From: an uncultured Gammaproteobacteria bacterium
Lineage (GTDB): Bacteria > Patescibacteriota > Microgenomatia > UBA12405
Direction: 5' to 3'
DNA: 64,000 bases
Assembly (NCBI GenBank): GCA_964544275.1
Contig: CAZIZX010000005.1
Location: forward strand, 4,720 to 68,719
Each line of letters opens with the position of its first letter. Positions within the stretch are counted from its first letter, which is position 1. A model generated the notes under the pieces. The model was not told the origin of the DNA. It ran no database searches and saw nothing but the letters and a program-made list of their open reading frames with translations. Shown here one piece after another: positions 28,939 through 60,398 of the stretch. A program made the translations under genes and the position numbers.

Positions 28939-29847
28939 ATGGAACAACATCCGATACCTCAGCAGATTTCGTCCTACGAATTCAAGCTGGTGGGAGAAAT
29001 GACTTTAAAACAATTTGTGAAAGCGGCAGCAGGAGTGATTATTGCCTTGTTGATAAATGCCAGTGGAATCATCTTTTTTATAAAGTGGCCATTAATGTTA
29101 TTTTTTGGAGGAGGCGGACTATTGTTGGCGTTTGTCCCCTATGAGGATAGACCGCTGGAGACTTGGGTGATGGCGTTTGTCAGGTCGATATACTCACCAA
29201 CAATTTTCGTTTATAGAAAGAAAAAAACGATTAAGATAACCCCAGTTGAAGTCAAGAAGGAAGAGGAAAAGAAGGAGGTGGTTGAAGAAGAGAGCACAAA
29301 AGTTAAAAAGGACGAAAAGAAAGTAAGAGAGTTTATTTCGTCGTTACCTTCGGTAAAAAGAGAAGAAAAGAAAGAGGAAAAGGAAGAGGTGGTACTAATT
29401 AAAAAGGACGTGATTATAAAAGATGTAAATCCCGAAATTCAAGTTGATAAAAAAGCGACAGAGGCAAATGCCAGCAGTAACAAAGAAGAATGGAGAGATC
29501 AAAAAAGTGATTTAAATTTGCAAAGGAGAAGATTAGAAGCTACGGGCGAAACGTCTTTTGGAACTATCCCAATGCCAGACATTCCAGAAGTTGCCAACGT
29601 ATTAGTGGGAATGGCAACCGATGTTGACGGCAAGATAATTGATGGAGCGATAGTCGAAATTCAAGATGATGTGGGCAATCCAAGCCGAGTATTAAAAACG
29701 AATTCTTTGGGGCAATTTAGAACTTCAACTCCAATGGCAAACGGGAAATACTTAATTATAACGGAAAAAGAAGGTTATGATTTTCATCGAATAAGTGTCG
29801 AATTAAAGGGAGAAATAGTTCAACCAATAAAAATTATCAGCAAATAA
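28939..29847 (+). CDS. PrgI-family-like T4SS membrane protein with K/E-rich linker and C-terminal CarboxypepD_reg-like beta-sandwich
   Basis: N-terminal ~100 aa: EFKLVGEMTLKQF then two TM helices (AAAGVIIALLINASGIIFF, LMLFFGGGGLLLAFVPY), as in PrgI proteins that precede VirB4 in Gram-positive T4SS. 302 aa is longer than the typical ~120 aa. Confidence 0.55.
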   Translation: MEQHPIPQQISSYEFKLVGEMTLKQFVKAAAGVIIALLINASGIIFFIKWPLMLFFGGGGLLLAFVPYEDRPLETWVMAFVRSIYSPTIFVYRKKKTIKITPVEVKKEEEKKEVVEEESTKVKKDEKKVREFISSLPSVKREEKKEEKEEVVLIKKDVIIKDVNPEIQVDKKATEANASSNKEEWRDQKSDLNLQRRRLEATGETSFGTIPMPDIPEVANVLVGMATDVDGKIIDGAIVEIQDDVGNPSRVLKTNSLGQFRTSTPMANGKYLIITEKEGYDFHRISVELKGEIVQPIKIISK

Positions 29848-29879
29848 TCTTGGGATAAATTTAGGTTATCATATAACAT

Positions 29880-30587
29880 ATGCCAAGTGATCCTTTAAAA
29901 ATTGCCATAAAAGGAAGTACTCAAGAACATTTGCCAATCGAGGATGTGGTAGATGGTATTGTGGTGCTGAAAGACGGATCGTGCTCGATGGTTTTGCAAT
30001 TGTCGTCGGTGAACTTTGATTTGTTGTCGGAACGGGAACAATCAGCTTTGGTGTTTGCTTATGGCGGTATTTTGAATTCACTCAATTTCATGGTGCAGAT
30101 TATTATTCATTCAAACAGTAAAGATATTAGTGTATATTTAAAAAATTTAGCGGCAGCCCAGGAAAAACAAGAAAATCCGCAGTTAAAGGAACGAGTGGTG
30201 GCGTATCGTAAGTTCGTGGAGGAAACCGTAAAAAGAAACGATGTTCTGTCAAAGTCATTTTATGTGGCGATACCATTTTCTATAATGGAACTGGGAATCA
30301 GCAGCGCTAAAGGTCAAATATTTAATTCCCTACCCTTGCCCGGAAAAAGTAGCGGAGAGTTGCCATTTTCCAAAGAATATATTTTAGAAAAAGCTAAAGC
30401 TAGTTTGGAACCGAAAAAGGATCATTTGGTAAGATTATTTTCACGCTTGGGGCTGGACATAAAACCACTAGGGACAAAGGAGTTGATTGAGCTTTTTTAT
30501 AAAATATACAATGAAAGTACGGCGGTGAATCAAAAAATTCAAACGTTAAATTATAACGCACCAGTGGTAACAAGTACTGAAAAATAA
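29880..30587 (+). CDS. Hypothetical T4SS-associated protein (between PrgI-like and VirB4)
   Basis: Tightly packed in the operon; the N-terminal ~80 aa resemble the N-terminal region of the adjacent VirB4 only loosely. Confidence 0.4.
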   Translation: MPSDPLKIAIKGSTQEHLPIEDVVDGIVVLKDGSCSMVLQLSSVNFDLLSEREQSALVFAYGGILNSLNFMVQIIIHSNSKDISVYLKNLAAAQEKQENPQLKERVVAYRKFVEETVKRNDVLSKSFYVAIPFSIMELGISSAKGQIFNSLPLPGKSSGELPFSKEYILEKAKASLEPKKDHLVRLFSRLGLDIKPLGTKELIELFYKIYNESTAVNQKIQTLNYNAPVVTSTEK

Positions 30588-30590
30588 AAA

Positions 30591-32999
30591 ATGGATTTTT
30601 TAAAAAAAATAATAAAGAAGGAAGAGAAGGCCGATATGCCGAAAGCTAGTGCTTCGGTGACGGCGAATAATAATGGAAGCAAGCCTTTTGAGGAAGGTTT
30701 GGTGTCGACAAAGGATATTATTGCACCATCAGCCATAGAGGTTGATTTTAACCACATAAGGATTGATGATAAATACTATCGGACATTGTTTGTGGCCGGG
30801 TATCCAAGATTTGTGGGAATAAACTGGTTGTCACCGCTAATTAACTTTGATGCTTCACTAAATGTGTCAATGTTTATTTACCCGACGGATGGGAAAGAAA
30901 TTTTGGATGATTTGAGAAGAAAAATTACGGAAATGGAGGCAGAGCTGAGTACAGATATTCAAAGAGGACGGATCGTGAATCCGGCTACTCAGGCTAAATT
31001 AGAAGATGCTTTGTCTTTGCAAGCAGACCTAGTCAAAGGGGAGGAGCGGTTTTTTCAATTCGGACTTTACATCACTATATCGGCGGAATCGGTGGAAGAG
31101 TTAGACCGGATAAATAAAAACATCGAAGCGTCTTTGGGAGCATTATTAATTATCAGCAAGAAAGCAACTCTTCAAATGGAAGATGGATTTATGACCACTC
31201 TACCCATATGCAGCGACAAACTCAGCATCACTAGGAACATGGACACGACCTCACTGGCAACAACCTTCCCATTTGTGTCGTCTGACTTGTCCGATAACAA
31301 AGGGATAATGTACGGAATAAACCAACACAACGGGTCGTTGGTCATTTTCGACCGATTCAGCATGCCGAATTATAATTCGGTAGTATTTGCTACGGCCGGT
31401 GCCGGTAAGTCCTACATGATTAAGCTGGAAGCAATCAGATCATTAATGTTTGATACAGACGTGATCGTGGTCGACCCTGAAAATGAATACAGAAGTTTGT
31501 GTGATGCGGCAGGCGGCCAGTACATTGCTTTTGGCTATAGTGAGAATTCTAAAATCAATCCATTTGATCTATCTTTGACAGTGGAAGAGGAAGGGGAAAA
31601 TTCGTTGAATTCCAAGATACTATCATTACATAAGTTGTTTAAGCTAATGGTGGGAGAAATGACGCCGATTGAGGAGTCAATTTTGGACCGGGCAATAATG
31701 GATGCTTATAAAATGAAGGGGATTACTCCAGATCCAGATACACAAAGTAAGGAATCTCCACTGATTGAGGATTTATATAAGTCGCTTATCGGAACAGAGA
31801 GCAAGGAAGCTCAGAGTTTGGCAGCCAGGTTAGAAAAATATATTAAGGGTTCTTTTGCGGGTATATTTAACCAAAAAACTACTGTAAATTTAAACAACCG
31901 GTTTGTGGTGTTTGGCATTAAAAACTTAGAAGAAAGTCTAAGACCAATTGCCATGCATATAATTCTGGACTACATCTGGACCACGGTTAAAAAAGAGCTT
32001 AAAAAGAGAATTATGATCGTGGATGAGGCCTGGTATTTGATGCAATATCCAGATTCGGCGGCGTTTTTGAGAGGGGTAGTTAAACGAGGTAGAAAATACT
32101 ACTTAGGAGTGACGACTATTACCCAGGATGTGGATGATTTTTTGGAAACACCGTATGGTAAGGAAATTGTGACCAACAGTTCAATACAGATATTGCTAAA
32201 GCAACACAGTGCGGCCATAGATAAAATTGGTGAGGTTTTTTATCTTTCTGAAGGTGAAAAACAATTATTGCTGACGGCGGACAAGGGAGAAGGTATTTTC
32301 TTTGCCGGGCAAAATCATGTGGCTATAAAAGTGATCGCTTCAGAAGATGAACACAAATTAATAACATCGAACCCAGAAGAGATATTGAAGATGAAGGCGG
32401 AGGGAAAGGTAGTAACAATGGAAAATAAAAACTTGCTTATTTCAAATCAAACACTGCCGATCAACCCAAGCAATATTCAAGTAGAAGAAGAGCCGGAGAA
32501 GGTTGTTTCTCCAGTAGTAGAAGTGAAGAATGAAATAAAACAAGCTGAGACAGGAAAAGGTGAGGAAAAGCCAATAGAAACAAAACCATTAATTGATAGT
32601 TCAAGTGCCCGGTTCAGAACAGAGGTGGTCGGAGGGGATGACGAAAATGAAGGATTGCTTCAAAGAAAAATTAATGAAATGGAAAAAGTTGAGCAGGATA
32701 AAATAGATGATTTTATCAGGCAAGAAGTAGAGGCAGTTAAAGATGAAGAAGAGGAAATACCCTTGAGAGAATCACAACCGACACCATCTTTTGAAGCGCC
32801 AAAGGTGGTAAAACTTGGAGGAGGAAATATCGGGAGTAAGCCAATTTTTGTCAGTCAAGAACCGAAAATACAACAACCCCCACAATTGAGTAATAAGCCT
32901 AAGCCGGATTTTGAAGAAAACAACCAAGATAAAAAGATAGATACCAATAAAGATGATAAAAACGATTATGACTCACTTTTCGGTGATGGAATTGTTTAA
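30591..32999 (+). CDS. virB4: VirB4/TraC/PrgJ-family type IV secretion ATPase with ~200-aa low-complexity C-terminal extension
   Basis: Walker A ATAGAGKSY, Walker B IMIVDEAWYLM. Overall 802 aa with CagE/TrbE/VirB4 domain order. E/K/P-rich tail from about aa 600. Confidence 0.85.
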   Translation: MDFLKKIIKKEEKADMPKASASVTANNNGSKPFEEGLVSTKDIIAPSAIEVDFNHIRIDDKYYRTLFVAGYPRFVGINWLSPLINFDASLNVSMFIYPTDGKEILDDLRRKITEMEAELSTDIQRGRIVNPATQAKLEDALSLQADLVKGEERFFQFGLYITISAESVEELDRINKNIEASLGALLIISKKATLQMEDGFMTTLPICSDKLSITRNMDTTSLATTFPFVSSDLSDNKGIMYGINQHNGSLVIFDRFSMPNYNSVVFATAGAGKSYMIKLEAIRSLMFDTDVIVVDPENEYRSLCDAAGGQYIAFGYSENSKINPFDLSLTVEEEGENSLNSKILSLHKLFKLMVGEMTPIEESILDRAIMDAYKMKGITPDPDTQSKESPLIEDLYKSLIGTESKEAQSLAARLEKYIKGSFAGIFNQKTTVNLNNRFVVFGIKNLEESLRPIAMHIILDYIWTTVKKELKKRIMIVDEAWYLMQYPDSAAFLRGVVKRGRKYYLGVTTITQDVDDFLETPYGKEIVTNSSIQILLKQHSAAIDKIGEVFYLSEGEKQLLLTADKGEGIFFAGQNHVAIKVIASEDEHKLITSNPEEILKMKAEGKVVTMENKNLLISNQTLPINPSNIQVEEEPEKVVSPVVEVKNEIKQAETGKGEEKPIETKPLIDSSSARFRTEVVGGDDENEGLLQRKINEMEKVEQDKIDDFIRQEVEAVKDEEEEIPLRESQPTPSFEAPKVVKLGGGNIGSKPIFVSQEPKIQQPPQLSNKPKPDFEENNQDKKIDTNKDDKNDYDSLFGDGIV

Positions 33000-33022: not shown

Positions 33023-35833
33023 TTGGTATCGATGAGCGGATTTAATGTTGCCAACATATCTTCTGTGGAAAATTGCCAATCACTGGCTCTGTGTTTAAGG
33101 GAACTAGATAAAACTTCTAATGTTAGACAAAATCTATATCTAGAAAATATTTTAGAAAGGGTATTTAGGGCTGGAGGATTTAGAGTAGATGTAAGAAAAG
33201 AATCGCTGACGGGAGTGGCCAAGGCTTTGGAGAGTCTGAGTCCGGATCAGGTCGAGAGGGTCAACAGGGTGCTTTTGGAAGAAATGGGGGCGATTGACGA
33301 AGCAACCGAAAAGGATTTGCAAAATGCAGTGGTACCAACCGCCCAACTGGAACAATTACTGAAAGAATATGAAGAACACCTGAAAAATGGTATGAGTCCA
33401 GGTGAAGCATTGGAGAAAATCACCGAAGCAAACAAGGGTATTGTGGCCAGATCTCAAATAGAGGATTTAATTAGAAGACAAAGCGAAGCTTATCAAAAAA
33501 TTGTTGATGATCTGAGGGAAGTTTCAGCAGAAAGCTTGGGAGAGGAAACCATAAAAGAATTAGCTAAAAAGACGGCAACAGAGGTGGCAGTGAGTAGTAA
33601 AGAGCTGGAGATCGAAATTAAGGCTGCCGGGCAGAGTGTTCCGTCGATAGTGGTTGAAAAATTAGCAGAGGAATTAAAAGAGGTGGGTGTACAGAGAATA
33701 CTGGAAAACAATATTTCGCGAGACGGTTTTGACAAAAAGGTGGAGAAGGCAGTTGAGGAAGTGAGTCAGGACTTAACCAAGCAAATAATAAAGCAATATG
33801 CAGAAGGAGCAAAAACAAGAATTGAGCTTCAGGTGGATATAAGAAAAAGAGCTTTTGAGATAACTGATAATTTATTGGCTGAGCTTCAATCTAGTGATCC
33901 GATACTGGCTGGGTTGGTGGAGAAAGCCGGGGTTGGTGTCAGGATGGAACTGGCCGACAGGATAAATCAGGAAATTATTCTGGGGCTAAGTGTTCCCGGA
34001 CAATTAGAGGAGAGGGTTGTATCTGAGATAAGCAGAGGCACTCCGTCCTTGGGAGAAGAACAGGTCGAAAGAGTTGAAATGGCAGTAAAGTCGATAAGAG
34101 TACAGGTAACAAGCTGGACTGAAAACAATAAAATTGAATTAACTAAACCACAGGGAGATTGGTTTGAAAGAAATATCGTTGATTCGTTTGTGGGAGAAAA
34201 TGGTCAGTTGCAAATAAACGAGTGGCGGGACGTAAGGCAATACGCAAAATTGGTAAGACAGATATATTACCCTTCGGACGGAAACCAGGTAGATGCATAC
34301 AAAAATGAGTCAATGGAACTTGCCAGAAGCAGGAATCAAAGTCCAGGAAAAATAGATAATGCATGGAACGATTTGAGAGGATTAACGGCGATGTTGCGGA
34401 TGAAACCGGCAGAACTAAATAATTTTATTAATAATTACAGGAATGCTCAGGAAAAATTGAAAGGTTTGAACCTACCGTTCAAAGTAGGTGAGTGCCGGGC
34501 CTTGGACGGTTTAATTAAAGCCATTGAAAGCAGTCCACAAACAAGAAATTTTTTGATTTATGCTCAGAAATACATTGCTCTGAACAATTCAATAAACAAG
34601 ATTGGAGCGACGATACTAACAAAAATTGGAGCTAAAGAAGTAGCGTTAAAAATGGTAGGGAAGCTGGGCGGGCAAGCGATGGTGGAATTTACCAAAAATG
34701 CTTTGGTGGTGTTTGCTGAACACGGGACAACAACTGGATTGAAGTTGATATTAAAAGGAATTGTGACAGGAGGAGTGAAGGCGGGGGCAGCAGGAGCCGG
34801 GGCTGGAGCGGGAGCAAGTGGAGGTGTGGCGGCAGCAGTAGCAGCTTTCCAAGCATTACCGGTGGTGGGACAAGTAATATTGTTGGTGGTTGGGGCAGTT
34901 GTTTTGATTAAGTCAGTGGTGGCTCCGTTGGTAAAAAAGATTAAGAAGGTGTTGGGATCGTTGAACTTGGAGTTGGGAATGACTAAATTTTTCAAGGAGA
35001 ATTTTGGTAATTTTGTAGGCGGAATATTAAATGGAGCCGTAAAAGTGGGAATGGTAGTGGTTGGCATGCCTGCTTTGATAATAGGCACAACGATGACTGC
35101 TTTTTTAACTCCAGTTTTAATAATTTTTTTTGCAGTATTCGTATTATATCAGTTCATTTTTTTGCCTAATTTGATTTCGAGTATAGTTCCACCAAGGTAC
35201 GCCGGGTCGGGGGCAGGGGAAGAAATCGGTGATGGTGGTTTTACCCCTTCTGAACCAATATATTCTGAGGATTGTGATAGTAGTCCGGCTTGCGCAATTA
35301 TTGAACATATACTGCATGATTTGGGTTACCAAAGAGCTGTTGGGCGAGATACAAGAGAACACAAGAAAAATGTTGATGAGATTGCAAGTAAGTTAAGAAA
35401 TTGGGACAGGACTTTTCCTGATTTTCCCAGTTTTAATTTGAATAGGTTTGTTGAAATTATGATAAGTAATTCAACGAATAACACCAGTGGTAGACCTTAT
35501 TTTCAATGTTTAGGGTTTTCTCTGGCGGCGGACTTAAATTTACCAAGAGGCAGGGAAATTAGTCATTATATGGCAGGTAATCATCCTGGTTGTATTTCAG
35601 TTGACCCAAAAAATGCTGGGGTTGGTGATCATATAATGTATATGGGACCTCATATTATGATCTTGTCAGTACTAAATAGTCCTGATGAATACGGAAAAAA
35701 AAGTGGTGTAATATCGGATGTAAACTATGATTACGAAGGAGCATTTAGGAATCGTTATTTTCCAGACTTCGATGAGTTTTTTAATAGTTTAAAAAGTAAT
35801 AAAGGGGCAGTTAAGATATTAAGATGCAAATAA
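33023..35833 (+). CDS. Large membrane protein: coiled-coil N-terminal half, Gly/Ala-rich TM cluster, C-terminal CHAP/NlpC-P60-like cysteine peptidase (cell-wall hydrolase) domain
   Basis: GAAGAGAGAGASGGVAAAVAAF and several TM helices (aa ~520-720). C-terminal YFQCLGFS (Cys) ... GDHIMYMGPHIMIL (His) is a papain-fold amidase pattern. Position after VirB4 resembles the PrgK/VirB1 role. Confidence 0.5.
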   Translation: MVSMSGFNVANISSVENCQSLALCLRELDKTSNVRQNLYLENILERVFRAGGFRVDVRKESLTGVAKALESLSPDQVERVNRVLLEEMGAIDEATEKDLQNAVVPTAQLEQLLKEYEEHLKNGMSPGEALEKITEANKGIVARSQIEDLIRRQSEAYQKIVDDLREVSAESLGEETIKELAKKTATEVAVSSKELEIEIKAAGQSVPSIVVEKLAEELKEVGVQRILENNISRDGFDKKVEKAVEEVSQDLTKQIIKQYAEGAKTRIELQVDIRKRAFEITDNLLAELQSSDPILAGLVEKAGVGVRMELADRINQEIILGLSVPGQLEERVVSEISRGTPSLGEEQVERVEMAVKSIRVQVTSWTENNKIELTKPQGDWFERNIVDSFVGENGQLQINEWRDVRQYAKLVRQIYYPSDGNQVDAYKNESMELARSRNQSPGKIDNAWNDLRGLTAMLRMKPAELNNFINNYRNAQEKLKGLNLPFKVGECRALDGLIKAIESSPQTRNFLIYAQKYIALNNSINKIGATILTKIGAKEVALKMVGKLGGQAMVEFTKNALVVFAEHGTTTGLKLILKGIVTGGVKAGAAGAGAGAGASGGVAAAVAAFQALPVVGQVILLVVGAVVLIKSVVAPLVKKIKKVLGSLNLELGMTKFFKENFGNFVGGILNGAVKVGMVVVGMPALIIGTTMTAFLTPVLIIFFAVFVLYQFIFLPNLISSIVPPRYAGSGAGEEIGDGGFTPSEPIYSEDCDSSPACAIIEHILHDLGYQRAVGRDTREHKKNVDEIASKLRNWDRTFPDFPSFNLNRFVEIMISNSTNNTSGRPYFQCLGFSLAADLNLPRGREISHYMAGNHPGCISVDPKNAGVGDHIMYMGPHIMILSVLNSPDEYGKKSGVISDVNYDYEGAFRNRYFPDFDEFFNSLKSNKGAVKILRCK

Positions 35834-36228
35834 GATTAATTAATAAAAAAATCTTATATATCGGGTTAGCTTTAGTATTCTTGCTAATCCTTCCTTGGGG
35901 AGGAGGCGGAAGTAAAGTAGAAAAAGACGAGACGGAATTGGGAGGTGGAGAGGTAATAATTGATCCAAATGATTATTCTGGATTCGGACCAACAGAAGAA
36001 GAGGCCTTAGAATTAATTGATGAATTCGAGTCGAACAAAAATGATTATCCTCTGTGGAATAAACTACCTTATGAAGGAAGAGGGTATAAAATAAGCAAAT
36101 ATTCAAAACCGCTGACGGTGGTGGTTTATCCGATAGGGTTAGATAAAGAAGTGGTAGAGAGGGAGGTAAGGCAATGGATTAAAGATAATGGCGGGGATGA
36201 GGTAAGGCATCAAATAGAATGGCGGTAA
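35824..36228 (+). CDS. Small secreted/membrane-anchored protein, paralog A
   Basis: N-terminal TM/signal; shares DYPLW..LPY.G.GY...Y...L.VV....DKE.VE..V..WIK.NG.D...H.IEW with the next gene. Confidence 0.5.
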   Translation: MQIRLINKKILYIGLALVFLLILPWGGGGSKVEKDETELGGGEVIIDPNDYSGFGPTEEEALELIDEFESNKNDYPLWNKLPYEGRGYKISKYSKPLTVVVYPIGLDKEVVEREVRQWIKDNGGDEVRHQIEWR

Positions 36229-51353: not shown

Positions 51354-53603
51354 ATGACAGAAAGAAGCGGGGCGATACCCAGTTCCTATTTGAGCGAAGT
51401 GAGAAGGGGAGGAATGGGAGAAGCGGATACGCGATGGGTAGAGGGAACGGCTTCTTTGGTTAAAGACCATATTTTTTATCCAGATCGAAGTAGAGTAGGA
51501 GGGGTGGGCGATACGGCGAAATCATTGGTGGAAGCTGTGAGCCAGGGGTTACCGAAGAGGTATCAGCGGGTGGCCGAGTTAAACAGGGATTACAACATGG
51601 CCCAAAGTCAGGGTGATAATGATTTGGCGGAACAATTGGATAGAAGATTAAATTTGTTGACACAGGTATCACTTGAAGCAATTACCAGTGGGAGTCCAAG
51701 GCCGGGAGCGAATACGCCTGATTATGCGGCGATAGCCGGGGCAGGGAGTACTTTGGATGTTAACCGGGCTTTGCCGCGGGAGTTGGTGGGTTTGGGTGAA
51801 AGGATAAGAAATCACTTGATAAGTAATCAGGAGGTGCAGGGTGTACTGAATTCACTGGATCGGGTGAGGCAAGATAAAGGTTGGGACAGAAGACCTCCGC
51901 GGGCAGAGAAAGTGCTGGAGGAGTATGAGAGTCATTATGAAAGATTGGCGGCTTTGAGGAGAACTATTGGTGAAAATCATCAAGACAGAGGGCAGTTGGA
52001 TATGGCAATGGCATATTTGGAAGATAAAATGCAGCAGGAAGAGATGAGGATCGGGGCGGGAGGACAACAGCAAGGACGTGACAGTGTGGAGGGTGGACGA
52101 CAAATGCCAAGTGAGGTTTCTACTGACATTGAAATTCCGACCAGTCCAGAGTCTCAGTTAAGATATGTGAGGACAATATTGGATACTTTAGAAGCAACCA
52201 ATAGGGATACCGGGGATTATGCCATAGCTACCAGAGTACATTACTTGGAATCAATTGCAGACAGGTTAAGTCCTGAGGTTGCGAGAGAAGTAAAAGCAAG
52301 AATTGCATTGGTAGATTGCTACGCCTTAATGAGAAAAGCAAACGGTTGGATTGAGCAACCACCTTCCGGGGGGATGACTATGGGTGGGGCAGCGCAGATT
52401 GCTTATGAGAGAAATCATGATTTATCAAGGGAAGTAATGGAGTTTTTCTTTGCTAGAGACAGCCGAAGCATGGTGGCTAACGGATTGCCAATTGATAGAG
52501 CATGGGATTTATTGCAGGAAGCTAACTTTAAATATGAAGAGATGATTGATAAGGTTGCAGCACATTTTGGTAGAGATCCTAATCGTATGAAAAGGGATTT
52601 TACCGTAAGTTTTGATGATGATCCTTCTTTAGGTAGGGTGGAAACAAATTTTTATGTTGACGGCAATGATGAGAGGAAAAATTTAGTTAGAGAGTATATA
52701 GTGGAGAGATTGGGTGGGGGATACCAAGCTAGAAAGGCATTGCAGCTAGCAGAAAGACTTATTTATGCAACGGCAGAAGCATCGGTAATTAACAGAGGAT
52801 CCCAGACGGGCAATGATCAGTTAGCAGAGGCAATCGGTTTGCATGCTTATCGCAGGAGTAGAGCACATACTGGAAGAAACAGAGGGCCGGAGCTTCATAT
52901 CGACGAAATACCTGGTTTTGGCATATCTTGGATTAGACAGTTTTCTCGGGTTACAAACGTAAATTCTCCTTTGTTTTCGAAAGACATTTTACCAGGTAGA
53001 ATCGAAGAAGGAAATTATCTGTATTATTATAGTGTTTGGGTCTCTGCAAAAATTCATCCATTGAGGGAAGAGGTATTGAATATTGCGCCTGATCCTAAGA
53101 AAATGTTATCTAGAGGTTTTTTTCAGAGGGCTGTTGATTATTTTAATAAAGCGGACCCTCCCTATGATGTAGTACGTGTTCCTGATAGGAATGTGTTGCC
53201 GCATGAAGTGCTTTTGGATAACAATGGAGATAAATATATAAAATATAAGGGAAGAAGAGTTGTCGGTGTAAAGCGAGGGGATGAACTGGTTTTTGATTTT
53301 GGTGGAGGAGTGAGAGTGGTAGCGGAGAAGACAAAGGAAGGAAAGAAGAGATTGCGATCATGGTATATTGCAGGAGTTGTTCAAATGGCCTCAACTGAAG
53401 GTTCTTTGGGTTGGACATTGGATGATGTTCAAGATTTGGGGAATCTTGTTAGCAGGGAAAGGTATGCTGAATTATCGGAAGAAGCAGGTACGTTTATTTC
53501 AAGAGAATCTTGGAATTGGATAATGAAGATTAATGACGCTCCAAGTGAAATGAGGAAAATGGAAGCTAGAAGACGAAGTAGAAGGAGGGCAGGTAGAGGA
53601 TAA
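51354..53603 (+). CDS. Large hypothetical soluble protein with Arg-rich C-terminal tail
   Basis: 749 aa, no TM, no Walker motifs, ends RKMEARRRSRRRAGRG. True start may be an internal Met. Confidence 0.4.
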   Translation: MTERSGAIPSSYLSEVRRGGMGEADTRWVEGTASLVKDHIFYPDRSRVGGVGDTAKSLVEAVSQGLPKRYQRVAELNRDYNMAQSQGDNDLAEQLDRRLNLLTQVSLEAITSGSPRPGANTPDYAAIAGAGSTLDVNRALPRELVGLGERIRNHLISNQEVQGVLNSLDRVRQDKGWDRRPPRAEKVLEEYESHYERLAALRRTIGENHQDRGQLDMAMAYLEDKMQQEEMRIGAGGQQQGRDSVEGGRQMPSEVSTDIEIPTSPESQLRYVRTILDTLEATNRDTGDYAIATRVHYLESIADRLSPEVAREVKARIALVDCYALMRKANGWIEQPPSGGMTMGGAAQIAYERNHDLSREVMEFFFARDSRSMVANGLPIDRAWDLLQEANFKYEEMIDKVAAHFGRDPNRMKRDFTVSFDDDPSLGRVETNFYVDGNDERKNLVREYIVERLGGGYQARKALQLAERLIYATAEASVINRGSQTGNDQLAEAIGLHAYRRSRAHTGRNRGPELHIDEIPGFGISWIRQFSRVTNVNSPLFSKDILPGRIEEGNYLYYYSVWVSAKIHPLREEVLNIAPDPKKMLSRGFFQRAVDYFNKADPPYDVVRVPDRNVLPHEVLLDNNGDKYIKYKGRRVVGVKRGDELVFDFGGGVRVVAEKTKEGKKRLRSWYIAGVVQMASTEGSLGWTLDDVQDLGNLVSRERYAELSEEAGTFISRESWNWIMKINDAPSEMRKMEARRRSRRRAGRG

Positions 53604-53728: not shown

Positions 53729-55345
53729 TTATGAGCCTGAGGTGGATTGAGATGGGGGTTCTCTAGTGGTACTATTCCGAGAAGCTTGGTCTTCTGCGGT
53801 GGTTTGTTGGGTTCTCCTTTTGGCAAACCAATTCGTTGCTTGAGAAATTCGTTCTTCGGCTTGCTTCCCAACTTCTTCTTGAGCATATCTTTCAAGTCCG
53901 CCTCGGATGTTCTTGGTGATAGGTGCAATAATTGGCATATTACCAAGTCCTTCTCCGACAGCACTACCCCAAGGAGACGGTTTGAGTTGGAAGATGGCTT
54001 GAGGGATAAGCTCTGGGAGTTTGGAAACCATAAGTAGTCCTCCCATGCCGATAAAAAAGGGAACGAGGCCTGCACCTGCGGATAAAATTTGAGGGGTCCA
54101 AATTGTAGCTCCAGAATACTTTATTGATTCGACGATGACATTTAGTATGATCAGGAAAATTAAGGATATAGGAAAGACGGAAAGATTGGCAACTAAATCG
54201 ATAATCCAGGAGGAAAAGCCCATTTTGGAGTTGGGAAAAGCTCCAAGACCAATTTCGAGAGGGGCTAAAATAATTTTGACAATAGCTGCGACATAGCATT
54301 TTATGAGTCCGAAAAAAAATTTGAAAAGAAAAAAGACGATGATAATTGAGAATATCAGGGTAACTATTCCGGCTCCAATAGCTGCACCTTTCAATCCGAC
54401 GAGAACAGTACCAATACCCGGTAGGGCAGATCCTGTGATAGCGCCGACAACTCCTCCGATGACAGCACCAATCAGAGCGAGATATTCAACGCCTGAATTT
54501 CTGATCATAAGGTAGAAGGAGGATACAAGATCAAAATTGTTAAGAGACCTATAGTTACTGGAAGCGATACCAATGTTTTGGAGGGCACCGGAAAATAAAT
54601 TTTCGTTCAAATTTGTGATCCCGCGGGCTTGAAAGATGGCAGCAATAGCTATAGCTTGGATCAGGTTTAGCAAGTCAATAACCAGACCGGCAATGGCGTA
54701 AGAGAAGGTGACTAGAATGAGGGTCATGAAAAGGCGAGGAAGAGCATTTTGTATGGTAATTGTGGCTTGAGGGCTAATCTTGATGCGAAGAATGATCATG
54801 AAACCAATGGCGATGAGTATTAAGGAAGAAAAGATGTAAACAATATTACGGAAGGTTCGCCAAATATCAAGTAGTGGTTGGAGGCCAACAAAACCAACAC
54901 CTTGTTGGGCATAGGCGGGTTTACCGAGAAAACTATTTTTCATTTGAGCTATATATTCGACCCCGGAAGCCGGAGGACTAAAGGTGGCAGCAATCAGATT
55001 GTTGACAGAACCGACAACGCCACCTGGTATCCAAACAATAGGTTGGCCGTTTTGGTCATACACTTGGCCTTCGAGAAACTCATCGGGAGCGGTTTCAAAT
55101 TCAATCAGGGCGTTGAGAGTGCCCATGACATTAGATTTAATTGCTTCTTTACCTAGCCAGGTTTCCATATTGGTACCTTTTGACCAAGCTTCTTTGGTAT
55201 CAAGAAAAATGTTGTTTTCTTGGGCAGAGACTGAGGATGTAAATATCGAGGAAAAAGCAAGAGCAAAAAGCAGAAAGACCAGAAATCCGGTATTTGAAAA
55301 AATTCTTGTAAGCAGGCGGTCTTTGACCATATGAAATTTTATCAT
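53729..55345 (-). CDS. VirB6/TrbL-like polytopic membrane protein with ~170-aa N-terminal extracytoplasmic domain
   Basis: Signal peptide then soluble domain, then at least 8 TM helices. Last gene of the pilin/transglycosylase operon. Confidence 0.45.
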   Translation of the reverse strand: MIKFHMVKDRLLTRIFSNTGFLVFLLFALAFSSIFTSSVSAQENNIFLDTKEAWSKGTNMETWLGKEAIKSNVMGTLNALIEFETAPDEFLEGQVYDQNGQPIVWIPGGVVGSVNNLIAATFSPPASGVEYIAQMKNSFLGKPAYAQQGVGFVGLQPLLDIWRTFRNIVYIFSSLILIAIGFMIILRIKISPQATITIQNALPRLFMTLILVTFSYAIAGLVIDLLNLIQAIAIAAIFQARGITNLNENLFSGALQNIGIASSNYRSLNNFDLVSSFYLMIRNSGVEYLALIGAVIGGVVGAITGSALPGIGTVLVGLKGAAIGAGIVTLIFSIIIVFFLFKFFFGLIKCYVAAIVKIILAPLEIGLGAFPNSKMGFSSWIIDLVANLSVFPISLIFLIILNVIVESIKYSGATIWTPQILSAGAGLVPFFIGMGGLLMVSKLPELIPQAIFQLKPSPWGSAVGEGLGNMPIIAPITKNIRGGLERYAQEEVGKQAEERISQATNWFAKRRTQQTTAEDQASRNSTTREPPSQSTSGS

Positions 55346-55366: not shown

Positions 55367-57940
55367 TTAATTGTTGTGACAGGCAGTAGGATTACTGGCT
55401 TGAATGCCAAGGACTGTTTTGTAATAGGTAGGATGATAGGCAGGACCGTAACGGTAGACTCCAAGTTCGATACTGCCCCAGCGGCTTATGAGTCCGGCCA
55501 AAAGAGAAGTGCCGTATTTGATGTTGAATTCGGGATGGAGAAGTTGGGCGGTGGTGGGGCGATCGGTAAAAAAGTGATCGAATTGATTGGTTTTGGTGTT
55601 ATCTTTGGGCATGATCTGCATCAATCCGACAGCTCCCTGAAAAGATATGGCATCAGGTTTGCCGCCGCTTTCGACGGTAATTAGAGCGGCAATGAGAGCA
55701 GGGTCAAGATTGTTTTCGAGAGAATATTTTCGAATCAAAGGGCACCATTGTTGGACGTTTTCGGCTACAGTGCCGGGAATGAATTCATAATCGCCGGGAA
55801 GATCCGGTCGTTGGAAGGAATCAATTGTACCAAGTTTTTCATGCCAGGATTCGGGATAGAGATAGGAGGTAAAGGCGTCGCGAAGTTTTTCGTTGCGGTT
55901 GCCTAAGTGGACAGTATCGTTTTTGTTGGTGGTGGATGAAAAAGGTTGATCTTTTATGTACTTGCCAGTATCTTCGGGGATAAAATATGAAAGAGCGGTG
56001 TCGTCTTTCTGGACGCCTTGGGCATACTGGGTGTCAAAGTATATTCTTTTGGTTAGATCAGCCCTTTCAGAGCGACTGAAGACGAGTCCTGTCCGGACTT
56101 CTTCGACAAAGATGTCCCAAATTTTGTCAACATTTTTAACTATTTTGCCGAATTGTAAAGGATTGGGTCGGTCACGGGCTGAATCCTGAGCAAGGGTGTT
56201 ACAGATATTTGACTCTAGAAGTTCTTGGGTGTCGGGCAGGAGGTTGTTGACGGCATTATTGTTGGGATAGACAGCAGCTAGAGGAATGGCTTGTTTTTGA
56301 GTGCTGTTGGGGTTGTCGGTGTTGTCATTTAGGATAATGTGCTTGGTGTCATATGAGCCGGTATCAACAATTTTTAGGGCTTCGAAGATTTTTTGGTAAC
56401 AATTATCATCTAATTGGGTGAATGTCTGGTTTTTCTTTGAAGTATAGGTTGAGCTGTATTGAGAGATAAAGCCCTGCTGAAAAGCGTGGATTTCACTTAA
56501 GAAGACAGGTCGACAAGTTAGGCCTTCAGGTTTCTGACAGTTGACACTAAAACATTGGGAGCCACAGCCCCAGGCAACTTGTTCGTCAATGGTGGTTCCG
56601 TGGTACTTGTTTTCTTCCGTTAAGGAACGGTAGGCTTCGGAAAGACGCTGTTCCTTTATTTTAATTTGGCTTTGGTAGGAGGTGCTTTTGAGAGCGGCAC
56701 CAACTCCGTCGGAATCATAGGATTTGAAAGAGGTATTTTTTACTTCTGAAGGGGCATTTATTTCAACGGGAAACTCTTTGGTCCAGTGGATTTGGGCTTT
56801 GCGGGTGGAATGATTGGTTAGATATTCGGAAGATAATACTTCCTGCTCAACCCGGTTGATAAATCTTTTGATAGTTTGGCCAATATCGGAAAGTAGGGGG
56901 ATGTAAGTGAAAGTTTCTTCGATGGAGATAGTTTTCTCGCAATAGGTATTGTCACTGATGTCAATATTGTTAGGAATGTTGTCCGGGTGTTTATTTTCGA
57001 TATTTTGGGCATTAGAGATGGGGGGGGAGAGATTGTTGGTGGTGACAATGACGGGAGGAAAGTCATGAATGGTGGATAAGTTACAGACAGCAGATTCACA
57101 AGTGACATTGGTGCAATCGTTTTTAAGGGCTCGAGCAACCTGGTGGTTGCTAAATTTCCAGGAGCCGCCATCGGGTTCGACGGTAAACATGAAATAGGCA
57201 ATAATGTTGCTGTCTTGTTGCCAGGTTTGAGTAATTTTTTGGTCACAAAAAAATTGAATAAATTTACAATCATCGTAAACCGGAGTTCCGGAATCACCGT
57301 TAGCAAGAACGCCAACCTCGGTGAGGATAAACTTTTTGCCGGGAAAAAGGGAAGAATATTGCCGAGCTTTGGCTGGGCCATAGGCGTGATAAGAAATAAT
57401 ATCAAAGTTGCCAAAGGCAGCTTGAGTGGCAGGGAAATTGTGGTGGTGAGGGTCAAGACCGGGGGAGATAACGGTAAAGTTTTTGTCGGGACAGGATTGG
57501 AGGTAGTTAATAAAGTTTTGAGCCCGATCAATAGCCTCATTGAGGGAAAGATTTAACCTTTCCCGTTCATGTTCGAGTTCATTGAAGGGTTCGACGTAAA
57601 CGGTTTTGCCGGTAGAAAATGACTTGATGGAATTGCACCAGCGAGTGGCAATTTCCTGTTGTTGGGCAGGAGTGCCTAACATTTTGGGGGCAACAGCATT
57701 TTCCCAGTGGGAGTGAAGACGTAAAACGACGTTGGATGCTGAGATGTTAGAAATATTTTCAGGAGAAGGCGGAGCATAAAAAAGCCAATTTTTGAGGCTG
57801 GGGTCGGTGACGATATTAATATTTCCAGGTTGGTTGATAAGATTAATACCAGGTGAGGCTGAAAAAACAGGGGAAATAGCAGAGAAAAGGTAAAACAAGG
57901 TGGTGAAGAATAAAATAGGTCTGAAACAATGTTGAACCAC
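55367..57940 (-). CDS. Large secreted protein with C-terminal lytic transglycosylase (SLT) domain, VirB1-like
   Basis: Signal peptide; C-terminal ALIAALITVESGGKPDAISFQGAVGLMQIMP is the SLT ES...GLMQ signature. Confidence 0.65.
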   Translation of the reverse strand: MVQHCFRPILFFTTLFYLFSAISPVFSASPGINLINQPGNINIVTDPSLKNWLFYAPPSPENISNISASNVVLRLHSHWENAVAPKMLGTPAQQQEIATRWCNSIKSFSTGKTVYVEPFNELEHERERLNLSLNEAIDRAQNFINYLQSCPDKNFTVISPGLDPHHHNFPATQAAFGNFDIISYHAYGPAKARQYSSLFPGKKFILTEVGVLANGDSGTPVYDDCKFIQFFCDQKITQTWQQDSNIIAYFMFTVEPDGGSWKFSNHQVARALKNDCTNVTCESAVCNLSTIHDFPPVIVTTNNLSPPISNAQNIENKHPDNIPNNIDISDNTYCEKTISIEETFTYIPLLSDIGQTIKRFINRVEQEVLSSEYLTNHSTRKAQIHWTKEFPVEINAPSEVKNTSFKSYDSDGVGAALKSTSYQSQIKIKEQRLSEAYRSLTEENKYHGTTIDEQVAWGCGSQCFSVNCQKPEGLTCRPVFLSEIHAFQQGFISQYSSTYTSKKNQTFTQLDDNCYQKIFEALKIVDTGSYDTKHIILNDNTDNPNSTQKQAIPLAAVYPNNNAVNNLLPDTQELLESNICNTLAQDSARDRPNPLQFGKIVKNVDKIWDIFVEEVRTGLVFSRSERADLTKRIYFDTQYAQGVQKDDTALSYFIPEDTGKYIKDQPFSSTTNKNDTVHLGNRNEKLRDAFTSYLYPESWHEKLGTIDSFQRPDLPGDYEFIPGTVAENVQQWCPLIRKYSLENNLDPALIAALITVESGGKPDAISFQGAVGLMQIMPKDNTKTNQFDHFFTDRPTTAQLLHPEFNIKYGTSLLAGLISRWGSIELGVYRYGPAYHPTYYKTVLGIQASNPTACHNN

Positions 57941-57978: not shown

Positions 57979-58365
57979 TTAGCCGGGGATTCTGAACTGA
58001 AGTATGGATAAATCCAGCCCGGTGAAATTGGCGATAAGTCTGAGGATGAGCCAGGAAATGATAATACCAGCCACGCCAAGTATGGCCATGGTAAGGCTGG
58101 ATGAGACTTGGGCGGTTTTTTTTGGGTCGCCGCTGGAAGTAAGATATTGGAAGCCATTAGTTATCAGAACCACAAAAAAAACTAGGCCAACCAGAAAGAC
58201 GATAGCTTGAAGAATATTAAAGAATAAACATTCAAGTCCTTGGATGGTAGCGACACCATCAACAACACAACGATTATCGATTTGGTTCCAGTCTTGTTGA
58301 GCAAAAGCAGCAGGAGGATTAAATAGGGTAATAAAAAATGGCAGTGCCAAGGCCTTCTTGAGCAT
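57979..58365 (-). CDS. VirB2/TrbC-like pilin paralog 1
   Basis: Start set at internal ATG (MLKKALALPFF...); leader ending AAFAQQ; hydrophobic-TSSGDPKK-hydrophobic core. Confidence 0.55.
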   Translation of the reverse strand: MLKKALALPFFITLFNPPAAFAQQDWNQIDNRCVVDGVATIQGLECLFFNILQAIVFLVGLVFFVVLITNGFQYLTSSGDPKKTAQVSSSLTMAILGVAGIIISWLILRLIANFTGLDLSILQFRIPG

Positions 58366-58391: not shown

Positions 58392-58416
58392 AAAACCCCG
58401 ACTTTAGTCGGGGTTT
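58392..58416 (-). terminator. Intrinsic-terminator-like hairpin between pilin paralogs 2 and 1
   Basis: Minus-strand transcript reads AACCCCGAC-UAAAG-UCGGGGUU followed by UUUUGC: 9-bp GC-rich stem plus U tract, 22 nt after the paralog 2 stop. Confidence 0.45.
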
Positions 58417-58438
58417 AAGGTTTACGATAGAAGTGAAA

Positions 58439-58819
58439 TTATGGTTGAAGGGTTGGTATTTCGAGAGTGAGGATGTTGATGCCGAAGATGACATTGATAA
58501 GCTGGACGATGGCCCAAGCGGCAAAAATAATAGCCAGACCGATAAGAGCACTGGTAATTTGGGCGCGGGCCGAAGCGACTTTCTTTTCGTCACCTTCGGA
58601 AGTAACCCACTTAATGCCGCCCCAGATAAGCATGAAGAAAAAGAGCAGGGCAGCGACCAGCATGATCAAGCTGATCAGTCCGGAAACTAAGCTGGCGGGG
58701 GTGATATTTCGAAGGACATTAAAGGTGCTGCTATCTTTGGGTCTGAGATCTATTTGCTGGGCGTAGGCGGGAGCGACCAGAGAGAAATATTTGACTTTAT
58801 TTGTTATTTGTTTGATCAT
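58439..58819 (-). CDS. VirB2/TrbC-like pilin paralog 2
   Basis: PAYAQQ leader end; core WVTSEGDEKKVASARAQITSALIGLAIIF. Confidence 0.55.
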   Translation of the reverse strand: MIKQITNKVKYFSLVAPAYAQQIDLRPKDSSTFNVLRNITPASLVSGLISLIMLVAALLFFFMLIWGGIKWVTSEGDEKKVASARAQITSALIGLAIIFAAWAIVQLINVIFGINILTLEIPTLQP

Positions 58820-58899
58820 TTTGTTGATTTAATGGTTAATTTGTAAGTAATTAGTTTATTTTAGCAGTTAGTTTTTTAAAATGGAAGGATTGCTTGTTT

Positions 58900-59259
58900 T
58901 TAGAGAGTGGGCCAGGGAATTGACAGGGCTTCCAGGCCTTGGATACCAGTAATTGTACCGATTAATTTGAGGATGACAAAAATAGAAAAGATTAAGATTA
59001 AGCCGACAAAAGCATAAGTGATAGAAGTGCGTCCGGATTCTATCTTTTTGGGATCACCCTCAGAGGTAATGAAGTGGAAAGCTCCAAGTGAAAAGAAGAT
59101 GATAAACATGAGGACGGCAATTATGAAGAGTATGGAAAAACCAGTCTGGAGCAGGTTGTTGAAATATCCTTGTGGATTAGTTACTTGGTTAGCAGCGCTG
59201 CAGTTTGGATTGAGGGCGGGGTTACAGATTTGGGCGAGAGCGGGTTTGACGATTGACAT
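58900..59259 (-). CDS. VirB2/TrbC-like pilin paralog 3
   Basis: PALAQ near the N-terminus; core FITSEGDPKKIESGRTSITYAFVGLILIF. Confidence 0.55.
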   Translation of the reverse strand: MSIVKPALAQICNPALNPNCSAANQVTNPQGYFNNLLQTGFSILFIIAVLMFIIFFSLGAFHFITSEGDPKKIESGRTSITYAFVGLILIFSIFVILKLIGTITGIQGLEALSIPWPTL

Positions 59260-59260
59260 G

Positions 59261-59602
59261 TTATTTAAATAGAGGTGAACTGGTAAGATTGAGGATGCCG
59301 GGCATACCTAAGATAGTAGCAATAAGCGAGGCCAGGGCGACGGCGACGACAACGATAATGAGCCCCATGATGCCGTAAGTGAGAGATTTTCTGGCGGAAT
59401 CGACTTTGGCCTTGTCGCCTTCGGAAGAAATAAAATTATAGCCGGCAATAATGATTTGAAAGATAAAGTAGATGACGGCAGCTACAGTGAGTAAGCCAAT
59501 AACCGTGCTGATTAGGTTTTGGAGAGTGGTGACAGAGTCAGCACCGGGCTGGAGGCCAAAGGGATTTTTCAATGTTTGAGCGTAAGCTGGTTTGATAATC
59601 AT
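59261..59602 (-). CDS. VirB2/TrbC-like pilin paralog 4
   Basis: PAYAQ near the N-terminus; core FISSEGDKAKVDSARKSLTYGIMGLIIVV. Confidence 0.55.
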   Translation of the reverse strand: MIIKPAYAQTLKNPFGLQPGADSVTTLQNLISTVIGLLTVAAVIYFIFQIIIAGYNFISSEGDKAKVDSARKSLTYGIMGLIIVVVAVALASLIATILGMPGILNLTSSPLFK

Positions 59603-59922
59603 TATTGTGGTCCCAAAATTCTGGGATTAAGGATGTCAATATTTAATATGCGGCCAACGACGGAAGCGATAAGGAAAGCAGAAGCGATAATTCCGAGACC
59701 GATAATGCTTTGGATGAGTCGGGAGGTAGCCTGTTCAACTTTTTTGGGGTCGCCGCTGGCTGAAAGAAGAGAGAAGCCGGACATGATAATCTGGAAAACA
59801 AAAAAGATAGCAGCGACAGTGGTAATGAGAATAAAAAAACGGTTGAGTAGGGTAAAAAGAGGAGAATCGCCGGTTGTTTCTATTTGGACCGGTGGTTTGA
59901 TTTGGCCGATAATGTCGCCCAT
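59602..59922 (-). CDS. VirB2/TrbC-like pilin paralog 5
   Basis: Core LLSASGDPKKVEQATSRLIQSIIGLGIIA. Confidence 0.55.
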   Translation of the reverse strand: MGDIIGQIKPPVQIETTGDSPLFTLLNRFFILITTVAAIFFVFQIIMSGFSLLSASGDPKKVEQATSRLIQSIIGLGIIASAFLIASVVGRILNIDILNPRILGPQ

Positions 59923-59925
59923 GGT

Positions 59926-60246
59926 TTAGTTGGTATTATTGAAAATTGTAACTCCGGTGACCATTTCGATAACTTGAACGATAAAAAAGGCAGAAACAAC
60001 GATCACTAGCCCGATAACGGCATTGGTAACAGCTTGTTTGCCGGTTTCAGTCTTTTTGGCATCATTACTGCCTGCGCCAATTATAAGCTGAAGACCGCCA
60101 AAAATCAAAAGACCAAGGAAAATTATGCCAGCCAGAGAAATAATATTTTTTAAGAGAACATTGACAAGAACGCCAAGATTAGGGAAGGTGTTTTCAAGAG
60201 TACGGCCGGAACCTAGAGGTAATTGCCCAATATTAACTTGAATCAT
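59926..60246 (-). CDS. VirB2/TrbC-like pilin paralog 6 (first gene of operon)
   Basis: Start set at internal ATG (MIQVNIGQLPLGS); core LIIGAGSNDAKKTETGKQAVTNAVIGLVIVV. Confidence 0.5.
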   Translation of the reverse strand: MIQVNIGQLPLGSGRTLENTFPNLGVLVNVLLKNIISLAGIIFLGLLIFGGLQLIIGAGSNDAKKTETGKQAVTNAVIGLVIVVSAFFIVQVIEMVTGVTIFNNTN

Positions 60247-60398
60247 TTTAATGGAAATTATACTATGTATATATAGGAATTTGTAGGAGCGCTTGGTAGA
60301 AAATTGACAAATAGATTTATTTGGCTGAAGATTCCGTATATATGATGATATAATACGCCACAAAGAAAAGGTTAATAATTAATATAAATCCCAAAAGA

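Follow-up and report, generated by a model that had tools for sequence, protein, structure and literature searches.

Patescibacteria, which live attached to host cells, account for a large part of bacterial diversity. No type IV secretion system (T4SS) had been shown to be essential to the organism that carries it before that of the Patescibacteria. In Southlakia, an unusual T4SS was described in which the pilins are essential and a coupling protein and a relaxase are not recognisable, and protein export or another role was proposed (Wang 2023, PMC10633639). A survey of 3,035 genomes defined a monophyletic Patescibacteria VirB4 clade nested in the mating-pair-formation class MPF-FATA, with TrsD, PrgI and VirB2 arrays of 2-11 genes, the latter especially in Microgenomatia, and with the T4SS near dnaA, dnaN, rnpA and rpmH in Paceibacteria and Microgenomatia; VirB6 was scarce in Microgenomatia within the search radius of +-20 coding sequences (CDS), and the pilins were perhaps co-opted from diderm systems (Quinonero-Coronel 2025, PMC12102498). 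A 2025 review considered these T4SS unique among monoderms, speculated on an uptake conduit, and reported that the Southlakia T4SS is essential and that deletion of comEC ends transformation but not viability (PMC12857230). The present analysis concerns a T4SS encoded in a 64,000-nucleotide stretch, hereafter the window, of contig CAZIZX010000005.1 (assembly GCA_964544275.1), assigned to the Microgenomatia.

The T4SS genes formed two modules, module 1 at 28939-36680 on the + strand and module 2 at 53729-60363 on the - strand. A previous sequence-only reading of the window had proposed such a two-module repertoire, and every component that it named was recovered at its place. We consider it highly probable that the modules are two operons of a single Patescibacteria-clade T4SS, in its Shapirobacteria/Woesebacteria form, which is of monoderm origin (MPF-FATA, CD1110 type), vertically inherited and no longer mobile. 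The feature was mostly known already, and its fit to the published Patescibacteria T4SS (Wang 2023; Quinonero-Coronel 2025) is well confirmed. Because the locus is this published T4SS, the earlier interpretation is right but not new. The locus is no new kind of system but sharpens the Microgenomatia picture, the increments being structural support for a Microgenomatia VirB6, a fixed orthologous set of six pilins, relatives of these pilins in monoderm systems and a GC skew that, in this lineage, keeps its sign across dnaA. The components are listed below (aa, amino acids; TM, transmembrane).

28939..29847, + strand: PrgI/VirB3-like membrane protein, 302 aa (PF12666, PF13620, TM prediction)
29880..30587, + strand: TrsD-like protein, 235 aa (NCBIfam TrsD 1e-7)
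30591..32999, + strand: VirB4-family ATPase, 802 aa (P-loop_TraG 1e-31, CagE_TrbE_VirB, conju_CD1110)
33023..35833, + strand: large membrane-anchored putative cell-wall hydrolase, 936 aa (TM prediction and CHAP-like family alignment)
35824..36228, + strand: small N-terminally anchored protein, paralog 1 (TM at residue 3; no family match)
36273..36680, + strand: small N-terminally anchored protein, paralog 2 (N-terminal TM anchor; no family match)
51354..53603, + strand: candidate accessory protein, soluble, fast-evolving, 749 aa (convergent with the VirB6-like gene)
53729..55345, - strand: VirB6-like polytopic membrane protein, 538 aa, about 8-10 TM (AlphaFold model and Foldseek)
55367..57940, - strand: signal-anchored protein with a C-terminal SLT lytic transglycosylase domain, 857 aa (PF01464 7e-18)
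57979..58365, - strand: VirB2-like pilin 1 (PF18895 34.8 bits; NF045849, Mbov_0395 pilin-like, 1.4e-5)
58439..58819, - strand: VirB2-like pilin 2 (PF18895 42.7 bits; NF045849 8e-6)
58900..59259, - strand: VirB2-like pilin 3 (PF18895 36.6 bits; NF045849 5e-7)
59261..59602, - strand: VirB2-like pilin 4 (PF18895 29.3 bits; NF045849 1.7e-8)
59602..59922, - strand: VirB2-like pilin 5 (PF18895 50.3 bits; NF045849 38.6 bits, cut-off 40)
59926..60246, - strand: VirB2-like pilin 6 (PF18895 32.5 bits; NF045849 3.6e-6)

As in Southlakia epibionticum (SEML1_0006-0019), a Patescibacteria-clade VirB4 stands alongside TrsD and PrgI/VirB3 and is followed by cell-wall hydrolases. The array of six divergent VirB2-like pilins with VirB6, the absence of a relaxase and of a type IV coupling protein (T4CP) from the locus, and the chromosomal position beside dnaA/dnaN/rnpA/rpmH are likewise shared with Southlakia and the surveyed systems. 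The repertoire had been called incomplete; its gene set is as claimed, but this set is normal for the clade. Unlike in Southlakia, the locus is divided into two operons on opposite strands with 17 kb between them, an arrangement kept across Shapirobacteria and Woesebacteria. By our own count the VirB6-like gene lies at +18, and only one of the six pilins is still within the +-20 CDS of the survey; part of the system is thus outside the usual search window. The VirB6 reported as scarce in Microgenomatia has here a concrete candidate, recognisable by structure only. MPF-FATA systems (CTn2/CD1110, pGO1 TrsD, Bacillus cereus pJ62_2) share with the window the VirB4 family (31-38% identity), a VirB3-like protein upstream, a peptidoglycan hydrolase directly downstream and the lack of outer-membrane components. 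The B. cereus plasmid system also carries a VirD4-like CD1115 coupling protein, TrbL/VirB6, a replication initiator, an integrase and a transposase, whereas the window is without mobility or coupling genes.

The VirB4 protein (Walker A at residue 267, variable low-complexity C-terminal tail) scored 400 bits against the NCBIfam model conju_CD1110 (cut-off 325), covering only model positions 185-734, and 119 bits against the VirB4_CagE model (cut-off 643). Its nearest relatives were Patescibacteria (55-85% identity). Among the matches listed from 5.8 billion proteins, the best 120 were at least 62% identical (62-85%), and every one with a named source came from Patescibacteria (Shapiro-/Woesebacteria), except for one "bioreactor metagenome". 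The nearest plasmid relatives were from Bacillota and Actinomycetota (31-38%). VirB4 belongs to the Patescibacteria clade nested in MPF-FATA, a placement that follows the published phylogeny (PMC12102498) and not a tree of our own. The TrsD-like protein also matched positions 3-117, the N-terminal part, of the CD1110 VirB4 model (NCBIfam) and for this reason looks like a detached N-terminal domain of VirB4. Its orthologs carry PF26593 (TraC-like); identity is 60-88% in the loci of Shapirobacteria/Woesebacteria and drops to 30-44% in remoter relatives. The PrgI-like protein (25.9 bits against PF12666, gathering score 27) has two predicted N-terminal TM helices, at residues 21 and 44, a Lys/Glu-rich linker and a C-terminal CarboxypepD_reg (PF13620) beta-sandwich domain; its orthologs in relatives were also flagged as PrgI, weakly.

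The 936-aa protein downstream of VirB4 consists of a cytoplasmic region of ~600 aa, five TM segments and an extracellular C-terminal domain at residues ~741-936, according to TM prediction. No direct match was obtained in Pfam/NCBIfam profile scans, and the C-terminal domain alone gave only noise against Protein Data Bank (PDB) sequences. The first ~735 residues, cytoplasmic and TM, are homologous to the proteins occupying the same position in relatives, and the extracellular catalytic domain is swapped between lineages: CHAP-like in the window, NlpC/P60 in locus L001 (12874-15858), M23 in L005 (12544-15972), and Amidase_3 with C39_2 in L019 (11761-16500). The end domain of the window protein is rare, with 16 matches in 1.84 billion representatives, nearly all C-terminal in similarly large proteins. 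Its alignment revealed invariant Cys, His and Asn residues, the Cys being part of an F-Q-C motif. Pfam CHAP was matched by five of the 14 family members (best 1.6e-6), and the best profile match of the family in the PDB, to the S. aureus amidase-domain protein SAOUHSC_02979 (5t1q), was weak (E 0.012) and covered the His-Asn region. It is because of this family alignment that we accept the domain as CHAP-like, the domain alone having matched nothing. The two small paralogs that follow, ~135 aa each, had no Pfam/NCBIfam match; the position of paralog 1 before dnaN is kept in Shapirobacteria, and the positional analogs of paralog 2 in Daviesbacteria carry a Big_5 Ig-like domain. Their C-terminal domain is only about 65 aa long, and as the VirB8 fold is much larger, they probably do not have this fold. 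Promoter and terminator consensus scans of module 1 remained at shuffle level and were uninformative. In module 2, 28 promoter-like sites were counted against 12.4 +- 3.4 in shuffles; none could be placed at the operon start, so that these were uninformative as well.

All six pilins of module 2 matched PF18895 (T4SS_pilin) above the gathering score, and all matched the Mycoplasma-ICE (integrative and conjugative element) pilin-like family NF045849 just below its cut-off (E 1e-5 to 6e-10). The likely start of pilin 1 is the ATG at 58365, the listed open reading frame (ORF) extending to 58593 and overlapping pilin 2; that of pilin 6 is the ATG at 60246, the listed ORF extending to 60363 and the orthologs being ~110 aa long. 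Each pilin aligns as a two-helix hairpin with a conserved S-x-G-D-P-K-K loop. By best-match assignment, the order 6-5-4-3-2-1 was found in 37 related loci, and arrays cut at contig ends were consistent with it. Median identity was 44-56% between orthologs and 26-39% between paralogs. This difference, together with the conserved order, indicates from sequence comparison that the six-pilin set is old and fixed in the clade. A fixed set would be expected of specialised subunits, whether mixed in a heteromeric pilus or divided into major and minor pilins; recent amplification and antigenic variation account for it less well, and a heteromeric pilus is thus favoured. The pilin of Pontibacillus was matched by the profile hidden Markov model of the window pilins (9.5e-19). 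This homology to the Pontibacillus/Mbov_0395 family suggests that the pilins came with the monoderm ancestor; the presence of pilin-like genes in related monoderm systems argues against separate capture from diderms. A B. cereus plasmid gene annotated 'pilin' had no detectable relation to the window pilins, and homology is claimed for the Pontibacillus/Mbov_0395 family only. Pilins 3 and 4 (58900-59602) have leaders of 9-10 residues, M-x-I-x-K-P-A-x-A-Q, before the conserved A-x-A-Q site, and pilins 1 and 2 have longer, signal-peptide-like leaders. Divergent from the array, at 60399-63537, lie genes for a 7TM_transglut protein, an ATPgrasp_ST ligase (RimB-like protease domain) and a RimK-like ligase. 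All three were detected in 25 of the 28 related loci from L038-L115 that were 12 kb or longer, and in the three exceptions the array was at or near a contig end. These genes may be merely syntenic or may form a pilin-modifying system.

The 538-aa polytopic protein had no direct profile match to VirB6. Its AlphaFold model, built with 40 homologues, reached a mean pLDDT of 75, with values >90 across much of the membrane core, and a Foldseek search of 350,542 chains returned six VirB6 chains on top (best E 0.045, probability 0.99). Since these scores are moderate but specific, we accept the protein as VirB6-like on the strength of the predicted model. Its sequence profile gave only noise against PDB sequences and no match to the 779-aa Pontibacillus protein or to the B. 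cereus TrbL protein. In the adjacent 857-aa protein the SLT domain occupies residues 735-827, with a TM segment at residue 8 and EmtA/MltC-like matches in NCBIfam.

The position of both modules is conserved in relatives. In JGI Ga0395526_000001 (1.117 Mb; VirB4 63% identical), VirB4 lies at 867194-869962 and VirB6-like at 897276-898868. The order is that of the window: fpg, GT4, 5'-3' exonuclease, PrgI, TrsD, VirB4, hydrolase, two small genes, dnaN, dnaA, rnpA, yidD, yidC, jag and Wzy, with the VirB6-like/pilin block 27 kb further in the same context. The same layout was found in GCA_041659325.1, a metagenome-assembled Shapirobacteria genome (VirB4 at 144623, VirB6-like at 170616), with 23.5 kb between the modules. 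PrgI-TrsD-VirB4 occurred in 30 of 31 species-level loci, L033 having only TrsD-VirB4. Downstream of module 1, dnaN/dnaA are located within 2-7 kb in Shapiro-, Woese-, Gottesman- and Daviesbacteria, and the housekeeping genes upstream of it in the window were present in all Shapiro-/Woesebacteria loci with enough flank. The context of module 2 was the same in all 28 metagenome loci of at least 12 kb found with the VirB6-like profile, in the order RimK, ATP-grasp, 7TM_transglut / pilins, (SLT), VirB6-like / ~750-aa, DUF6909, ftsH, RNHCP, DUF4012, and VirB4 was within 10 kb in none of them. Both modules and their housekeeping neighbours are therefore kept where VirB4 is only 60-85% identical, the synteny comparison that the sequence-only reading had called for. 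Third-position GC skew was +0.31 in VirB4, -0.51 in VirB6-like and -0.70 in the SLT gene, compared with +0.64 in ftsH and -0.65 in dnaA. The same extreme strand-specific skew as in the housekeeping neighbours implies that the T4SS genes are fully ameliorated and have long resided in their present orientations.

Profile scans of the ~60 window ORFs over 64 kb found no integrase, transposase, relaxase or coupling protein, in line with the earlier statement that none flanks the modules; nor was a relaxase, VirD4 or integrase beside either module, which would speak for mobility, encountered in the window. There were no att-like repeats and no adjacent tRNA, the only tRNA of the window being distant. 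No relaxase and no integration or replication module lay within +-10 kb in the two relatives Ga0395526_000001 and GCA_041659325.1, and a scan of viral contigs found no VirB4 relatives. With the CD1115-type VirD4 of the B. cereus plasmid as tblastn query against the window and 116 loci (1.6 Mb, within 10 kb of the modules), the best E was 2.3; the VirB4 of the same plasmid scored 9e-82. Neither an associated coupling protein nor a relaxase/oriT with an integration or replication module, the marks of a conjugative MPF-FATA system, was thus found here. Synteny, amelioration, the absence of mobility genes and of a nearby VirD4, and the literature all support the earlier view of a domesticated, chromosomally fixed secretion or filament system rather than a mobile element.

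The 17 kb between the modules, which lie on opposite strands, hold dnaN, dnaA, rpmH, rnpA, yidD, yidC, jag/KhpB, a Wzy_C ligase, a Polysacc_synt flippase, DUF4012, RNHCP, ftsH, DUF6909 and the 749-aa gene, so that the housekeeping and glycan genes said to separate the modules are indeed there. This gap, the opposite strands and the intervening housekeeping genes could mean two unrelated systems, a VirB4 machine in module 1 and, in module 2, an independent array combining a wall hydrolase with small secreted membrane proteins, the two being linked by chance; in this clade, moreover, the nearest neighbours of module 2 are always ATP-grasp/7TM genes and never VirB4. We consider this very improbable. 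In the Daviesbacteria loci L019, L021 and L030, VirB6-like and PrgI share a strand, with VirB6-like 6-8 kb upstream and only two opposite-strand genes between them; in L030 a pilin precedes VirB6-like, and the clusters then run PrgI, TrsD, VirB4, big hydrolase, small proteins, dnaN, dnaA. A Parcubacteria locus, L033, gave a weak sign of adjacency, a VirB6-like match (E 4e-4) directly upstream of TrsD-VirB4. The closest VirB4 relative in a plasmid collection (38% identity), from Pontibacillus sp. ALD_SL1 (NZ_CP062975.1, a non-mobilizable 898-kb replicon; L037, 351362-361354), stands in one block ordered pilin-like (Mbov_0395 family annotation), pilin-like, 779-aa polytopic, 116-aa, 274-aa, VirB4, M23 hydrolase. 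Homology to the window was detectable for the pilins, PrgI (blastp 2e-8 with the 116-aa protein just upstream of TrsD/VirB4), TrsD (1e-27) and VirB4 (3e-145). The window set is thus colinear with this cluster and with Mbov_0395-0397 of the Mycoplasma ICE (pilin-like, polytopic, PrgI-like, TrsD, VirB4, big hydrolase); the Pontibacillus cluster differs in being contiguous, in having two pilins and not six, a VirB4 only 38% identical and a polytopic protein without sequence similarity to VirB6-like. Eight equal longest-contig sizes appeared in the match lists of VirB4 and VirB6-like, consistent with shared contigs. To our knowledge, no function is known for VirB6 or VirB2 without VirB4. The proximity of the modules, within about 6 kb in some Daviesbacteria, and the colinear Bacillota cluster lead us to conclude that a single contiguous monoderm T4SS operon was the ancestor of both modules and that the split is secondary. 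A rearrangement would have moved the pilin-SLT-VirB6 block 20-27 kb off, across dnaA, and inverted it. The split, and a set incomplete relative to plasmid systems, might also suggest the decaying remnant of an integrated conjugative element broken by rearrangement. This is hardly credible: every gene is intact, VirB4 retains 60-85% identity between genera, the order is kept in dozens of genomes, composition is fully ameliorated and there is no integrase or att site, and the conservation data effectively refute it.

A single T4SS might still be conjugative, its chromosomal mating-pair-formation genes exporting DNA with the help of a coupling protein and a relaxase encoded elsewhere. Only 64 kb of this genome were inspected, and VirD4 homologues exist in most Patescibacteria genomes, usually distant from virB4; on the other hand, relaxases occur in only 103 of 3,035 genomes, the distal T4CP of Southlakia is non-essential while its T4SS is essential, and VirB4 phylogeny tracks taxonomy with almost no inter-class transfer (PMC12102498). 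As no VirD4-like gene was near either module in the 116 loci either, we regard conjugation as highly improbable. Import of environmental or host DNA by a monoderm counterpart of ComB, followed by passage across the membrane through ComEC, seems quite unlikely, if less so. Like Helicobacter pylori ComB, the window encodes VirB2, VirB3, VirB4 and VirB6 homologues with no relaxase or coupling protein nearby, and with its hydrolases the set resembles ComB minus the outer-membrane parts; T4SS loci of the ABY1 class adjoin comF, recG and radA (PMC12102498). ComB, however, is a diderm system with VirB7-10, a VirB4 of another clade and a documented role in transformation, whereas the window contained neither VirB7-10 nor competence genes and its VirB4 is of CD1110/MPF-FATA type, not ComB/MPF-T, as the low VirB4_CagE score also indicates. 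In Southlakia, loss of comEC abolishes transformation and leaves viability intact, and the T4SS is essential (PMC12857230). Of the two roles suggested earlier, DNA acquisition and host interaction, DNA acquisition is the less favoured.

Several points weigh against the interpretation as one domesticated, vertically inherited T4SS. No VirB8-like protein was identified (no profile match among the window proteins), and the PrgI match is slightly below the Pfam threshold. The leaders of pilins 3-6 are only about 6-10 residues long, and polymerisation of the pilins is presumed. Function is extrapolated by analogy from a different class, the Saccharimonadia. A coupling protein or relaxase could be encoded elsewhere in the genome, and the survey's VirD4 homologues, usually far from virB4 (PMC12102498), belong to the same side of the balance.

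We propose the following working of the single T4SS. PrgI/VirB3-like, TrsD-like and VirB4 would constitute an ATP-driven membrane platform, and the VirB6-like protein would serve as a membrane channel or as a base for pilin extraction. The membrane-anchored CHAP-like amidase and the SLT transglycosylase would open the peptidoglycan locally. From the six non-redundant VirB2-like pilins, a probably heteromeric pilus or conduit would be built that crosses the wall and the S-layer and reaches the host cell. If Southlakia is a guide, epibiotic growth should depend on this system. As for the cargo, export of effectors or other proteins to the host may be what the system does, a tentative preference; uptake or exchange of host material is possible, if somewhat doubtful; DNA as cargo appears unlikely, and attachment without any cargo equally so. 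A more specific version, in which a coupling-protein-independent, pilus-bearing feeding or exchange conduit brings host macromolecules inward through a six-pilin heteromeric filament and the VirB6-like channel with its ~750-aa cytoplasmic partner, is speculative and rather unlikely to be right in this form.

The claim that one module borders the replication origin was upheld in part. Eight of the 38 DnaA boxes of the window were clustered within 1.7 kb at dnaA; the dnaN-dnaA region contained five of them and the dnaA-rpmH junction the other three. The GC skew was +0.29 to the left of dnaN and +0.39 to the right of dnaA (+0.33 overall), without any sign change across the 64 kb, the stretch at 36677-39634 across dnaA/dnaN included. 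In related high-skew loci, left-hand values were +0.23 to +0.36 and right-hand values, where the right flank was long enough, +0.34 to +0.47, L032 being negative on both sides, and the 28 module-2 loci all had +0.21 to +0.42 in the orientation of the window. In Daviesbacteria loci with the same gene order, the skew does flip, from -0.03 to -0.10 on the left to +0.02 to +0.16 on the right. At third codon positions, + strand genes had values of +0.3 to +0.65 and - strand genes -0.35 to -0.70; skew tracks the DNA strand and not gene orientation. The active origin may be located >37 kb to the left, replication may not proceed bidirectionally from dnaA, or another strand-asymmetric process may be at work. 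Proximity to the origin rests on the DnaA boxes only and is questioned by the GC skew in this lineage; the missing inversion at dnaA cautions against the argument "near origin, hence high dosage" here. Three ORFs of 174-240 aa rich in Pro/Ser/Leu/Thr, at 34564-35088, 44716-45276 and 56818-57540 on the - strand, were noticed. Two are antisense to + strand genes and one is in an alternative frame on the strand of the SLT gene; in our view they are probably by-products of the pronounced G>C bias of the strand and not genes.

The 749-aa protein encoded next to VirB6-like had no Pfam/NCBIfam match, no Walker A motif and no TM segment, and only three homologues were detected among the 5.8 billion proteins. 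Its N-terminal block shows homology (9e-8) to the protein at the equivalent position in L004. The pair of VirB6-like and ~750-aa genes is duplicated as a unit in L003 (JGI Ga0395526_000001, 9986-18035), and a large gene convergent with VirB6-like holds the same place in Daviesbacteria, the 878-aa positional analog of L019 having no similarity to the 749-aa protein. The convergent position, the duplicated pair in one relative, the convergent gene in Daviesbacteria and the small number of homologues (three) make it a candidate partner of VirB6-like within the T4SS. An AlphaFold model from the three-sequence alignment (pLDDT 50) was too poor and was not used for a fold search. The Arg-rich C-terminal tail was considered as a T4SS secretion signal and dropped, the tail not being kept in the distant partners of L003 and L004.

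Some further observations concern the surroundings. L003 (JGI Ga0395526_000001) also encodes seven pilins and a separate SpoIID-domain protein. The Pontibacillus cluster, which may represent a further domesticated, pilin-bearing monoderm T4SS, has a flagellar gene cluster a few genes downstream. A 567-aa DUF6909 protein (Pfam 1e-166) is encoded at 49606-51309, between the genes for FtsH and the 749-aa protein, with a homologue at this place in most related loci; it had no match among PDB sequences, and its C-terminal part resembles, by eye, nucleoside phosphorylase motifs. At 8666-11375, 18 kb upstream of module 1, a P-loop protein (Walker A at residue 85) stands beside a RecD-like AAA_30/UvrD_C_2 helicase; no relaxase domain was detected in these genes. 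The first two genes of the window (1-3228) encode surface-type proteins (Fib_succ_major; fn3 with CarboxypepD_reg), with a GC content of 0.46-0.48 against ~0.40 and a skew near 0.1 against ~0.3, an atypical composition which suggests that they were more recently acquired.

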